Shown here piece by piece: positions 17,234-50,161 of a DNA stretch of 64,000 nt. Every line of letters starts with the position of its first letter. Positions within the stretch are counted from its first letter, which is position 1. The position numbers were made by a program, and so were the translations under genes. The notes beneath the pieces were generated by a model. It did not search any database. It had not been told where the DNA came from and saw nothing but the letters and a program-made list of their open reading frames with translations. This DNA is from Escherichia coli (lineage in GTDB: Bacteria; Pseudomonadota; Gammaproteobacteria; Enterobacterales; Enterobacteriaceae). The DNA is taken from NCBI RefSeq assembly GCF_003334315.1, contig NZ_QOWR01000011.1, one strand, 5' to 3'.

Positions 17234-18637
17234 GTGTCACTTTCGCTTTGGCAGCAGTGTCTTGCCCGATTGCAGGATGAGTTACCAGCCACAGAATTCA
17301 GTATGTGGATACGCCCATTGCAGGCGGAACTGAGCGATAACACGCTGGCCCTGTACGCGCCAAACCGTTTTGTCCTCGATTGGGTACGGGACAAGTACCT
17401 TAATAATATCAATGGACTGCTAACCAGTTTCTGCGGAGCGGATGCCCCACAGCTGCGTTTTGAAGTCGGCACCAAACCGGTGACGCAAACGCCACAAGCG
17501 GCAGTGACGAGCAACGTCGCGGCCCCTGCACAGGTGGCGCAAACGCAGCCGCAACGTGCTGCGCCTTCTACGCGCTCAGGTTGGGATAACGTCCCGGCCC
17601 CGGCAGAACCGACCTATCGTTCTAACGTAAACGTCAAACACACGTTTGATAACTTCGTTGAAGGTAAATCTAACCAACTGGCGCGCGCGGCGGCTCGCCA
17701 GGTGGCGGATAACCCTGGCGGTGCCTATAACCCGTTGTTCCTTTATGGCGGCACGGGTCTGGGTAAAACTCACCTGCTGCATGCGGTGGGTAACGGCATT
17801 ATGGCGCGCAAGCCGAATGCCAAAGTGGTTTATATGCACTCCGAGCGCTTTGTTCAGGACATGGTTAAAGCCCTGCAAAACAACGCGATCGAAGAGTTTA
17901 AACGCTACTACCGTTCCGTAGATGCACTGCTGATCGACGATATTCAGTTTTTTGCTAATAAAGAACGATCTCAGGAAGAGTTTTTCCACACCTTCAACGC
18001 CCTGCTGGAAGGTAATCAACAGATCATTCTCACCTCGGATCGCTATCCGAAAGAGATCAACGGCGTTGAGGATCGTTTGAAATCCCGCTTCGGTTGGGGA
18101 CTGACTGTGGCGATCGAACCGCCAGAGCTGGAAACCCGTGTGGCGATCCTGATGAAAAAGGCCGACGAAAACGACATTCGTTTGCCGGGCGAAGTGGCGT
18201 TCTTTATCGCCAAGCGTCTACGATCTAACGTACGTGAGCTGGAAGGGGCGCTGAACCGCGTCATTGCCAATGCCAACTTTACCGGACGGGCGATCACCAT
18301 CGACTTCGTGCGTGAGGCGCTGCGCGACTTGCTGGCATTGCAGGAAAAACTGGTCACCATCGACAATATTCAGAAGACGGTGGCGGAGTACTACAAGATC
18401 AAAGTCGCGGATCTCCTTTCCAAGCGTCGATCCCGCTCGGTGGCGCGTCCGCGCCAGATGGCGATGGCGCTGGCGAAAGAGCTGACTAACCACAGTCTGC
18501 CGGAGATTGGCGATGCGTTTGGTGGCCGTGACCACACGACGGTGCTTCATGCCTGCCGTAAGATCGAGCAGTTGCGTGAAGAGAGCCACGATATCAAAGA
18601 AGATTTTTCAAATTTAATCAGAACATTGTCATCGTAA
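17234..18637 (+). CDS. dnaA: chromosomal replication initiator protein DnaA
   Basis: ORF track 17222..18637 trimmed to GTG at 17234 ([14 protein letters not shown]...); AAA+ Walker [11 protein letters not shown]; C-terminal DNA-binding domain. Confidence 0.97.
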
Positions 18638-23279: not shown

Positions 23280-23378
23280 GCCTGATGCGCTACGCTTATC
23301 AGGCCTACGAAAATCTTGCAATGTATTGAATTTTCATGATTTTGTAGGCCGGATAAGGCGTTCACGCCGCATCCGGCA
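23280..23378. repeat. pair of REP (repetitive extragenic palindromic) elements forming a BIME-like unit downstream of gyrB
   Basis: GCCTGATGCGCTACGCTTATCAGGCCTAC and GTAGGCCGGATAAGGCGTTCACGCCGCATCCGGCA are canonical REP palindromes. Confidence 0.7.
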
Positions 23379-33446: not shown

Positions 33447-33540
33447 AGCCGATGAGGACGCGCCTGATGGGTGTTCTGGCTACCTGACCTGTCCATTGTG
33501 GAAGGTCTTACATTCTCGCTGATTTCAGGAGCTATTGATT
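33447..33540 (+). promoter_or_regulatory. ibpA 5' UTR (about 95 nt; candidate ROSE-like RNA thermometer)
   Basis: Long structured leader between the sigma-32 promoter and the ibpA RBS; thermometer function is established knowledge, the fold was not computed. Confidence 0.45.
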
Positions 33541-33954
33541 ATGCGTAACTTTGATTTATCCCCGCTTTACCGTTCTGCTATTGGATTTGACCGTTTGTTT
33601 AACCACTTAGAAAACAACCAGAGCCAGAGTAATGGCGGCTACCCTCCGTATAACGTTGAACTGGTAGACGAAAACCATTACCGCATTGCTATCGCTGTGG
33701 CTGGTTTTGCTGAGAGCGAACTGGAAATTACCGCCCAGGATAATCTGCTGGTGGTGAAAGGTGCTCACGCCGACGAACAAAAAGAGCGCACCTATCTGTA
33801 CCAGGGCATCGCTGAACGCAACTTTGAACGCAAATTCCAGTTAGCTGAGAACATTCATGTTCGTGGGGCTAACCTGGTAAATGGTTTGCTGTATATCGAT
33901 CTCGAACGCGTGATTCCGGAAGCGAAAAAACCGCGCCGTATCGAAATCAACTAA
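33541..33954 (+). CDS. ibpA: small heat shock protein IbpA (alpha-crystallin family)
   Basis: 137-aa ORF starting [21 protein letters not shown]; alpha-crystallin domain. Confidence 0.95.
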
Positions 33955-47041: not shown

Positions 47042-47214
47042 TATCACGGATGCTTTTATAAAAATAATTAGAATAAGTCACTACGCATTCCCATAAATGC
47101 GGGAGAGGAATCTATCACATTGATGAATGTTAGCCAGATATACGCCAGGAATGGGGAATTGTTTAGCGGCAGAATATGTAAACAAAAGCGGCAATAAATG
47201 TTGCCGGGAGAGAT

Positions 47215-47255
47215 GGTAGGGCGGATAAGATGCGTCAGCATCGCATCCGACACCA
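47215..47255. repeat. REP-like palindromic element between emrD and tisB
   Basis: GGCGGATAAGATGCGTCAGCATCGCATCCGACACC resembles the REP consensus. Confidence 0.5.
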
Positions 47256-47266
47256 ACCCGCACGCT

Positions 47267-47298
47267 AAATATAAAAGGGGAGCGGTTTCCCGCTCCCC
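47267..47298 (-). terminator. rho-independent terminator of the tisAB transcript
   Basis: GGGGAGCGG-tttc-CCGCTCCCC stem; on the minus strand it is followed by a U-tract (plus-strand AAATATAAAA). Confidence 0.7.
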
Positions 47299-47320
47299 TT
47301 TGGTGCGACTTGAATCTGAA

Positions 47321-47410
47321 TTACTTCAGGTATTTCAGAACAGCATCAAGCAGTTGCAGTGCTGCAACAATGAGTTTGAGGATAAGAATGGCGATATCCA
47401 CCAGGTTCAT
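47321..47410 (-). CDS. tisB: type I toxin TisB (29-aa membrane peptide MNLVDIAILILKLIVAALQLLDAVLKYLK)
   Basis: Hand-translated 30-codon ORF below track cut-off, with AGGAG RBS; exact TisB peptide. Confidence 0.9.
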   Translation of the reverse strand: MNLVDIAILILKLIVAALQLLDAVLKYLK

Positions 47411-47662: not shown

Positions 47663-47770
47663 TAATATTTGGACAAAACGCAAACTGTGATCGATACTCA
47701 ACTATGCACTAAATACGTCAAAATTCGTGCCGAAATTGCGCGTTCTGCGCGGAACACGTATACTTTCAGT

Positions 47771-47846
47771 GTTGACATAATACAGTGTGCTTTGCGGTTA
47801 CCAGCCGCAGGCGACTGACGAAACCTCGCTCCGGCGGGGTTTTTTG
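47771..47846 (+). ncRNA. istR: IstR-1 antitoxin small RNA (about 75 nt); the longer IstR-2 probably starts about 65 nt upstream
   Basis: TATACT -10 element just upstream; the 5' end carries the 21-nt repeat complementary to the tisAB leader; ends at a GC-rich hairpin plus GGGGTTTTTT. Confidence 0.55.
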
Positions 47847-47974
47847 TTATCTGCAATTCAGTACAAAACGTGATCAACCCCTCAATTTTCCCTTGCTGAA
47901 AAATTTTCCATTGTCTCCCCTGTAAAGCTGTGCTTGTATAAATATTGTTAAACACAAAACCAACAAGGTCCCCA

Positions 47975-48073
47975 ATGACTACTTCCATGCTCAACGCAAA
48001 ACTACTACCAACTGCGCCATCCGCCGCAGTGGTCGTCGTGCGTGTGGTGGTGGTCGTCGGCAATGCGCCGTAG
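47975..48073 (+). CDS. ivbL: ilvB operon leader peptide (32 aa, MTTSMLNAKLLPTAPSAAVVVVRVVVVVGNAP)
   Basis: Hand-translated short ORF rich in consecutive Val and Leu codons, upstream of ilvB. Confidence 0.85.
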   Translation: MTTSMLNAKLLPTAPSAAVVVVRVVVVVGNAP

Positions 48074-48096
48074 GGACTGGAACAACACACGATTCC

Positions 48097-48134
48097 AAAA
48101 CCCCGCCGGCGCAAACCGGGCGGGGTTTTTCGTT
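48097..48134 (+). terminator. ilvB attenuator terminator
   Basis: CCCCGCC-ggcgcaaacc-GGGCGGGG stem followed by TTTTTCGTTT between ivbL and ilvB. Confidence 0.75.
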
Positions 48135-48178
48135 TAAGCACCTCCCGGAAAGTCGGCCCAGAAGAAAAGGACTGGAGC

Positions 48179-49867
48179 ATGGCAAGTTCGGGCACAACAT
48201 CGACGCGTAAGCGCTTTACCGGCGCAGAATTTATCGTTCATTTCCTGGAACAGCAGGGCATTAAGATTGTGACAGGCATTCCGGGCGGTTCTATCCTGCC
48301 TGTTTACGATGCCTTAAGCCAAAGCACGCAAATCCGCCATATTCTGGCCCGTCATGAACAGGGCGCGGGCTTTATCGCTCAGGGAATGGCGCGCACCGAC
48401 GGTAAACCGGCGGTCTGTATGGCCTGTAGCGGACCGGGTGCGACTAACCTGGTGACCGCCATTGCCGATGCGCGGCTGGACTCCATCCCGCTGATTTGCA
48501 TCACTGGTCAGGTTCCCGCCTCGATGATCGGCACCGACGCCTTCCAGGAAGTGGACACCTACGGCATCTCTATCCCCATCACCAAACACAACTATCTGGT
48601 CAGACATATCGAAGAACTCCCGCAGGTCATGAGCGATGCCTTCCGCATTGCGCAATCAGGCCGCCCAGGCCCGGTGTGGATAGACATTCCTAAGGATGTG
48701 CAAACGGCAGTTTTTGAGATTGAAACACAGCCCGCTATGGCAGAAAAAGCCGCCGCCCCCGCCTTTAGCGAAGAAAGCATTCGTGACGCAGCGGCGATGA
48801 TTAACGCTGCCAAACGCCCGGTGCTTTATCTGGGCGGCGGTGTGATCAATGCGCCCGCACGGGTGCGTGAACTGGCGGAGAAAGCGCAACTGCCTACCAC
48901 CATGACTTTAATGGCGCTGGGCATGTTGCCAAAAGCGCATCCGTTGTCGCTGGGTATGCTGGGGATGCACGGCGTGCGCAGCACCAACTATATTTTGCAG
49001 GAGGCGGATTTGTTGATAGTGCTCGGTGCGCGTTTTGATGACCGGGCGATTGGCAAAACCGAGCAGTTCTGTCCGAATGCCAAAATCATTCATGTCGATA
49101 TCGACCGTGCAGAGCTGGGTAAAATCAAGCAGCCGCACGTGGCGATTCAGGCGGATGTTGATGACGTGCTGGCGCAGTTGATCCCGCTGGTGGAAGCGCA
49201 ACCGCGTGCAGAGTGGCACCAGTTGGTAGCGGATTTGCAGCGTGAGTTTCCGTGTCCAATCCCGAAAGCGTGCGATCCGTTAAGCCATTACGGCCTGATC
49301 AACGCCGTTGCCGCCTGTGTCGATGACAATGCAATTATCACCACCGACGTTGGTCAGCATCAGATGTGGACCGCGCAAGCTTATCCGCTCAATCGCCCAC
49401 GCCAGTGGCTGACCTCCGGTGGGCTGGGCACGATGGGTTTTGGCCTGCCTGCGGCGATTGGCGCTGCGCTGGCGAACCCGGATCGCAAAGTGTTGTGTTT
49501 CTCCGGCGACGGCAGCCTGATGATGAATATTCAGGAGATGGCGACCGCCAGTGAAAATCAGCTGGATGTCAAAATCATTCTGATGAACAACGAAGCGCTG
49601 GGGCTGGTGCATCAGCAACAGAGTCTGTTCTACGAGCAAGGCGTTTTTGCCGCCACCTATCCGGGCAAAATCAACTTTATGCAGATTGCCGCCGGATTCG
49701 GCCTCGAAACCTGTGATTTGAATAACGAAGCCGATCCGCAGGCTTCATTGCAGGAAATCATCAATCGCCCTGGCCCGGCGCTGATCCATGTGCGCATTGA
49801 TGCCGAAGAAAAAGTTTACCCGATGGTGCCGCCAGGTGCGGCGAATACTGAAATGGTGGGGGAATAA
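48179..49867 (+). CDS. ilvB: acetolactate synthase I large subunit (TPP-dependent)
   Basis: 562-aa ORF; TPP-binding motif (GDGS...N) in the C-terminal domain. Confidence 0.95.
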   Translation: MASSGTTSTRKRFTGAEFIVHFLEQQGIKIVTGIPGGSILPVYDALSQSTQIRHILARHEQGAGFIAQGMARTDGKPAVCMACSGPGATNLVTAIADARLDSIPLICITGQVPASMIGTDAFQEVDTYGISIPITKHNYLVRHIEELPQVMSDAFRIAQSGRPGPVWIDIPKDVQTAVFEIETQPAMAEKAAAPAFSEESIRDAAAMINAAKRPVLYLGGGVINAPARVRELAEKAQLPTTMTLMALGMLPKAHPLSLGMLGMHGVRSTNYILQEADLLIVLGARFDDRAIGKTEQFCPNAKIIHVDIDRAELGKIKQPHVAIQADVDDVLAQLIPLVEAQPRAEWHQLVADLQREFPCPIPKACDPLSHYGLINAVAACVDDNAIITTDVGQHQMWTAQAYPLNRPRQWLTSGGLGTMGFGLPAAIGAALANPDRKVLCFSGDGSLMMNIQEMATASENQLDVKIILMNNEALGLVHQQQSLFYEQGVFAATYPGKINFMQIAAGFGLETCDLNNEADPQASLQEIINRPGPALIHVRIDAEEKVYPMVPPGAANTEMVGE

Positions 49868-49870
49868 GCC

Positions 49871-50161
49871 ATGCAAAACACAACTCATGACAACGTAATT
49901 CTGGAGCTCACCGTTCGCAACCATCCGGGCGTAATGACCCACGTTTGTGGCCTTTTTGCCCGCCGCGCTTTTAACGTTGAAGGCATTCTTTGTCTGCCGA
50001 TTCAGGACAGCGACAAAAGCCATATCTGGCTACTGGTCAATGACGACCAGCGTCTGGAGCAGATGATAAGCCAAATCGATAAGCTGGAAGATGTCGTGAA
50101 AGTGCAGCGTAATCAGTCCGATCCGACGATGTTTAACAAGATCGCGGTGTTTTTTCAGTAA
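49871..50161 (+). CDS. ilvN: acetolactate synthase I small (regulatory, ACT domain) subunit
   Basis: 96-aa ORF immediately downstream of ilvB. Confidence 0.9.

Follow-up and report, generated by a model that had tools for sequence, protein, structure and literature searches.

The region described here lies in a window of 64,000 nucleotides, the whole stretch of Escherichia coli DNA analysed (contig NZ_QOWR01000011.1), to which all positions refer. On the plus strand, an open reading frame with an ATG at 47975 runs through 32 sense codons to a TAG at 48071-48073, and translation of 47975-48073 gives MTTSMLNAKLLPTAPSAAVVVVRVVVVVGNAP followed by the stop. In RefSeq the same interval carries the annotation 'ivbL: ilvB operon leader peptide IvbL', with ilvB and ilvN following directly, and the peptide matches the NCBIfam equivalog model NF007579 at 78.7 bits (E = 2.2e-22; curated cut-off 60 bits), its residues 1-32 falling on positions 1-32 of a profile 32 residues long. 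The two regulated genes are immediately downstream on the same strand, in keeping with the placement of the peptide in the IvbL family: ilvB (48179-49867), which encodes the large subunit of acetohydroxyacid synthase I and scores 1087.5 bits on NF006016 (cut-off 870), and ilvN (49871-50161), which encodes the small subunit and scores 185.8 bits on NF006036 (cut-off 128), both also annotated in RefSeq. The annotated ivbL CDS of strain ER1709 maps exactly to 47975-48073, and its neighbours there are emrD, ysdE, tisB, ilvB, ilvN, uhpA and uhpB. Of 5426 complete E. coli genomes, 5419 have the 401-nt region around the leader; the best matches listed (ER1709 included) show 100% identity and likewise carry annotated ivbL and ilvB.

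Directly upstream of ivbL is the istR/tisB type I toxin-antitoxin locus, at 47716-47845 (plus strand) and 47321-47410 (minus strand). The istR RNA is a full-length match to Rfam RF01400 (150 bits) with its own terminator at 47820-47845, and tisB is a 29-aa ORF, MNLVDIAILILKLIVAALQLLDAVLKYLK. Between emrD and tisB, RefSeq places 'protein YsdE' at 47123-47197 (plus strand), where the list of ORFs has a 25-aa ORF with a TTG start at 47120-47197. A weak partial match to naRNA4 (CssrE; 22 bits, E = 0.34), which is possibly a REP-type palindrome, was found in the region of 47220-47252 and 47274-47301 (minus strand), adjoined by a strong 12-bp terminator-like hairpin, AAAGGGGAGCGGGAAACCGCTCCCCTTT. 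Elsewhere in the window, AsdA (the antisense RNA of the dnaA mRNA; 17744-17824, minus strand), the ES036 (CssrF) sRNA (23301-23343, minus strand) and a ROSE_2 RNA thermometer (33475-33547, plus strand) were called at the Rfam gathering score. On the plus strand of 47975-48134 there were zero Rfam matches, either at E <= 1 or at the gathering score, so that the leader matched no family of Rfam 15. Minus-strand matches to P6 and STnc310 over 48088-48284 are far below their gathering scores, and the P6 alignment consists of little more than the terminator stem read in reverse complement; both were rejected as spurious. A promoter scan upstream of ivbL called none. The only nearby match to the CRP pattern, CGTGATCAACCCCTCA at 47869-47884 with 3 mismatches, is uninformative, given that the pattern occurs 196 times in the window against 213 expected by chance.

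Six nucleotides before the ivbL ATG there is a Shine-Dalgarno-like AAGG (47965-47968), and the frame has the appearance of a short translatable leader ORF with its own ribosome-binding site. Its control codons are clustered and specify amino acids of the pathway's own products. Codons 19-28 (48029-48058) comprise nine Val codons out of ten (19-22 and 24-28), interrupted by a single Arg CGT at codon 23, and Leu is specified three times, by CTC at 47990-47992 and by CTA CTA at codons 10-11 (48002-48007); thus 9 of the 32 codons are for Val and 3 for Leu, and none is for Ile. The earlier note on this DNA had identified an ivbL leader and attenuator before ilvBN, an identification on which the RefSeq coordinates and the NCBIfam equivalog agree, and its 32-codon leader with Val runs (VVVVRVVVVV) is what translation gives. 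It had also spoken of runs of both Val and Leu codons: the Val part is correct, whereas the Leu part was an overstatement, the longest run of Leu codons being two.

Conservation was examined with a pattern of four GTN, one CGN and five GTN codons followed by GG, third positions being left free, which was searched over species-representative genomes. It returned 120 stretches, from which 90 distinct Enterobacterales leaders with the same ORF tail were retained, belonging to Escherichia, Salmonella, Citrobacter, Enterobacter, Klebsiella, Kluyvera, Serratia, Dickeya, Proteus and other genera; in 88 of the 90 a fragment of IlvB follows the leader. The N-terminal half of IvbL varies freely, and the peptide is near-fixed from 'LL.TA' onward. 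CTA is found at codon 10 in 85 of the 90 species and at codon 11 in 78, and an AGG followed by a CCC near the start of ivbL is kept across the alignment. Although the search left them free, the third positions of the Val block are nearly invariant: at four-fold degenerate third positions, the major allele has a frequency of 0.96 in leader codons 19-32, against 0.60 at conserved four-fold codons of ilvB in the same genomes. Such synonymous conservation in the control codons points to a constraint on the RNA itself, and it is as strong in this block as in the terminator across the 90 Enterobacterales species.

Two variations of the start were seen in the alignment. In 14 of the 90 leaders, mostly of Serratia or Dickeya type (for example L012, L026, L027, L032 and L033), a GTG is aligned to the E. 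coli ivbL ATG, which suggests that translation at these loci begins at GTG or at a codon farther upstream. Seven Enterobacter-type loci (L006, L030, L056, L068, L093, L094 and L110) have an in-frame upstream ATG that would give a 58-codon ORF (MKIFPLSR…); this longer form is probably not the one used, as these loci also have an ATG of the E. coli type, within the AGG…CCC context.

Between the leader ORF and ilvB, the first structural gene, lies an intrinsic terminator (48097-48135), the attenuator. Its G+C-rich stem pairs 48097-48109 with 48116-48129 in 13 bp with one bulged G, at -21.6 kcal/mol, and its U-tract consists of TTTTT at 48126-48130 followed by CGTTT, position 48134 falling in the distal T stretch. 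From the end of the hairpin at 48129 there are 50 nt to the start of ilvB. Our terminator scan of the region failed to call this hairpin, most likely because the scan does not allow a bulge in the stem. In the 90 leaders 96.2% of the cells of the terminator are paired, with one compensatory change from C-G to U-A, and a Term-seq 3' end named 'ivbL_t' has been reported (PMC9023263). Judging by their recurrence in 90 distinct Enterobacterales sequences, the ORF tail, stop codon, hairpin and T-tract together are more than a chance arrangement. The spacer from the terminator to ilvB (48140-48178, plus strand; …CCCGGAAAGTCGGCCCAGAAGAAAAGGACTGGAGCATG) is also well conserved across many genera of Enterobacteriaceae. 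On the plus strand, the 8-mer GGACTGGA occurs twice, at 48074-48081 just past the ivbL stop and at 48169-48176 in the Shine-Dalgarno region of ilvB. Species that have GGTCCGGA as the first copy retain GGACTGGA in the second, and this repeat is therefore probably a coincidence.

Three alternative pairings were found in the leader, a candidate protector, an antiterminator and the terminator, and all three are conserved. The antiterminator pairs 48064-48083 with 48091-48113 (48064-48070 with 48107-48113, 48073-48075 with 48102-48104 and 48078-48083 with 48091-48097), and its energy of -21.4 kcal/mol is near-equal to the -21.6 kcal/mol of the terminator. Among 1000 dinucleotide shuffles of 48058-48096, only 7 were as stable (z = -2.8). 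Its 5' arm belongs to segment 2 (48058-48083), which is made up of codons 29-32, the stop codon (48071-48073) and 10 nt beyond, the arm itself including codons 30-32 and the stop. Segment 3 (48097-48113) is common to the antiterminator 3' arm and to the terminator, of which it forms the whole 5' arm and most of the loop, and both sets of its pairing partners are conserved. Because these 17 nt are shared, the two folds are mutually exclusive. The middle hairpin at the tip of the antiterminator (48078-48083 with 48091-48097, spanning 48078-48097) is present in both states, since it can also form by itself next to the terminator.

In the 90 leaders the helices of the antiterminator have 96.8% and 100% of their cells paired. 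Changes on both sides are seen at three pairs of the middle hairpin, which thus covaries. Mean energies over the 90 species are -22.0 kcal/mol for the terminator and -21.3 kcal/mol for the antiterminator, and the ensemble folds of all 90 pass through the same succession: segment 2 sequestered, then the antiterminator, with a probability of about 1 once segment 3 is out, and then the terminator at full length. As the strands of terminator, antiterminator and protector are almost invariant and compensatory changes are few, covariation proper is thin, and the support for the pairings comes from conservation. Two further claims of the earlier note stand on these results. The GC-rich hairpin with a U-tract that it had placed after the leader is the one at 48097-48129 (-21.6 kcal/mol), and the folding check that it had proposed, for mutually exclusive alternatives across 47975-48134, was positive, as terminator and antiterminator cannot coexist. 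Its reading of the locus as a classical attenuator is supported by these alternative folds and by the published repression by Val plus Leu (PMC11187965).

Free RNA of full length has the terminator in its minimum free energy (MFE) structure, and at equilibrium so does, nearly always, full-length RNA with a stalled ribosome, codons 25-26 being the exception. Equilibrium folds of the full length return the terminator because it is so stable, and the informative test is a nascent transcript that ends before the 3' arm of the terminator is made. When the nascent RNA ends at 48113, the antiterminator is the MFE structure for ribosome positions up to about codon 27: with a masked ribosome footprint, it stays with the A site anywhere in codons 1-27 and disappears once codons 28-33 occupy the A site. 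As the stop codon lies inside the antiterminator 5' arm, a ribosome that finishes the peptide would block this fold, and one at earlier codons would leave the arm free. In these models, the position of the ribosome would thus select the fold, a ribosome at the stop codon preventing the antiterminator and a stall at the control codons permitting it. The thermodynamics of the partial transcript favour the antiterminator even without a ribosome, so that termination of untranslated RNA must rest on kinetics and on a protector of ambiguous identity.

For this protector, the RNAalifold consensus pairs 48033-48046, within the Val/Arg codons (segment 1, plus strand), with 48066-48080, and 98.9% of the cells are paired in the 90 leaders. 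The local energy of this stem between the Val/Arg codons and segment 2 is -10.6 to -15.4 kcal/mol in E. coli. The E. coli MFE structure is an alternative, composed of an ORF-wide hairpin, a helix between the Shine-Dalgarno region and a GGG, and a 4-bp hairpin (48058-48061 with 48067-48070), and it prefers the ORF-wide hairpin over the local hairpin by about 22 kcal/mol. As a conserved protector, the ORF-wide hairpin (47975-47988 with 48044-48057) was rejected: 78% of its cells are paired, with no double changes, and when the helix is slid by three columns 60-63% are still paired, because the Val codons repeat. The second element of the MFE structure pairs GGUCCC close to the Shine-Dalgarno sequence (47967-47972) with GGGACU just past the stop codon (48073-48078). 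Over the 90 species this helix has a mean pair probability of about 0.55 and 79% of its cells paired, its central pair being unpaired in 57 of the 90 sequences, and we keep it as a bare possibility. Of these two candidates, we tentatively favour the local stem of segments 1 and 2, the classical 1:2 pairing, as the probable conserved protector; such a stem would account for the fixed Arg codon and for the fixed third positions of the Val codons. A small hairpin separates the Leu codons from the Val codons (48012-48016 with 48025-48029, spanning 48012-48029, plus strand), and it covaries clearly at one pair (CG in 56, UA in 26 and AU in 6). When pairs spanning the ribosome are forbidden, the structures that hold segment 2 are estimated at about -20 kcal/mol with codon 18 in the A site and at only about -2 kcal/mol by codon 25, and such a weakening across the Val block fits sensing by the Val codons.

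Taken together, it is highly probable that 47975-48134 acts as the ivbL-ilvBN ribosome-mediated transcription attenuator, which would work as follows. RNA polymerase would transcribe a leader of about 185 nt while a ribosome translates the 32 codons of ivbL. If Val-tRNA and Leu-tRNA are well charged, the ribosome would reach the UAG at 48071-48073 and cover segment 2 (48058-48083), and segment 3 (48097-48113) would then pair with segment 4 (48116-48129) to form the terminator, stopping transcription in the U-tract before ilvB. Under poor charging, the ribosome would come to a halt within the Val block (48029-48058) or already at CUA CUA, and by sitting on or disrupting segment 1 and the upstream structures it would leave GCGCCGUAGGG free. 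This free strand could pair with CCCCGCCGGCGC once the latter has emerged, and the resulting antiterminator would use up the 5' arm of the terminator and allow readthrough into ilvBN. With no ribosome on the leader, the protector, either the Val/Arg codons at 48033-48046 or the 4-bp local hairpin together with a helix involving the CCC close to the Shine-Dalgarno sequence, would hold segment 2, and the terminator would form. The physiological response to Val and Leu is documented in the literature: one study describes ivbL as the attenuator through which ilvBN responds to Val and Leu, and reports that Val plus Leu represses an ivbL-gfp fusion (PMC11187965). Our folding showed no clear path by which stalling at the Leu codons would lead to antitermination, and the way in which such a stall is relayed is inferred.

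Other readings of the same features were considered. Taken alone, the attenuator hairpin is a canonical terminator, and a scan called no sigma-70 promoter just upstream of ivbL, as would be the case if the hairpin were the ordinary terminator of an upstream transcript, either istR or read-in, and the Val-rich ORF an untranslated accident. However, the full-length Rfam match of istR ends at its own terminator at 47820-47845, the ORF with its Shine-Dalgarno sequence, the VVVVRVVVVVG.AP tail and the stop codon inside the antiterminator arm are kept in 90 species, with ilvB downstream in 88 of 90, and the peptide passes a curated equivalog model, so that we give this reading practically no credence. 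It could also be supposed that IvbL acts in trans as a small protein or peptide and that the ORF is conserved for this function instead of for cis attenuation, since the C-terminal 16 residues are almost invariant in the 90 species. The N-terminal half of the peptide is nevertheless free to vary, and the conservation is at the nucleotide level and includes synonymous third positions (0.96 against 0.60 in ilvB), which RNA pairing predicts and a protein function does not; moreover, conservation falls on precisely the bases that take part in the protector and antiterminator pairings. A function in trans as the reason for the conservation is accordingly very improbable.

GcvB was reported to target ivbL, to bind near its start codon and to raise the ivbL level, and RNase E cleavage sites were reported in the ivbL-ilvB intergenic region (PMC11347164). 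Since the helix that would occlude the Shine-Dalgarno sequence is in the E. coli MFE structure and is predicted for about 55% of the ensemble across species, it is conceivable that control is mainly post-transcriptional, the helix of 47967-47972 with 48073-48078, GcvB and RNase E setting translation and stability of the leader, and that attenuation is secondary. Against this stand the 79% pairing of the helix, whose central pair is open in 57 of 90 sequences, and the documented response to Val and Leu (PMC11187965); post-transcriptional control would be an added layer and not a replacement of attenuation, and we regard its predominance as highly unlikely. Two CA-rich stretches, one in the 5' UTR (47950-47966, plus strand; AACACAAAACCAACAAG) and one forming part of the middle hairpin's loop (48083-48090, plus strand; CAACACAC), resemble the C/A-rich targets of GcvB. 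A second, sRNA-dependent gate atop attenuation could be imagined, in which the helix between the Shine-Dalgarno region and the sequence past the stop, closed over the ORF-wide hairpin, hides the ribosome-binding site and GcvB opens it via the CA-rich 5' UTR; alternatively, the abundant terminated leader might act as a GcvB sponge. We consider this rather unlikely and offer it tentatively; if true, GcvB would decide whether the leader is translated and hence whether the Val/Leu sensor is armed.

The stretch 47975-48134 is the canonical, already known ivbL attenuator, and nothing in this copy is unusual. Descriptions of it go back to the early 1980s, practically all E. coli genomes carry its annotation, and it already serves as a Val/Leu biosensor in metabolic engineering. 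The discovery value is accordingly small for a system so long known; what the analysis adds is that an attenuator recognised by a first-stage reader from raw sequence was confirmed and that window coordinates are now assigned to each pairing segment of the leader. In the literature, ilvBN is named among the operons under attenuation control (PMC1183508) and ivbL is among the leader peptides of EcoCyc (PMC7815308).

Compared with known systems, the locus is the same as the ivbL-ilvBN attenuator of E. coli K-12: it has the same 32-residue peptide, the same terminator and the same placement ahead of ilvBN, and no difference was detected in the comparison, which covered sequence and annotation. 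The K-12 attenuator is said to have been described by Friden, Newman and Freundlich in 1982 and by Hauser and Hatfield in 1983. The ilvL attenuator of ilvGMEDA (ilvXGMEDA) in E. coli and Salmonella likewise works through a leader peptide before a branched-chain amino acid operon, and has alternative stems and control codons for several amino acids. It belongs to another operon, however, and its control codons and its response include Ile besides Val and Leu, whereas ivbL has no Ile codon. In the leuL attenuator the rare codon CUA is reported to act as the Leu sensor (Carter, Bartkus and Calvo, 1986, as cited in PMC1183508). This use of CUA is shared by ivbL, whose CTA CTA is conserved in 85 and 78 of 90 species. 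The leuL leader has four consecutive Leu codons, whereas ivbL has only two CUA and one CUC, and Val is dominant. With the archetype trpL (PMC1183508), ivbL shares the logic of four segments, with a probable protector 1:2, the antiterminator 2:3 and the terminator 3:4, the predicted decision by ribosome position, and a stop codon close to segment 2. It differs from trpL in having nine Val and three Leu codons in place of two Trp codons, which makes its input multivalent, in the location of its stop codon inside the antiterminator arm, and in the extra conserved hairpin at the antiterminator tip.
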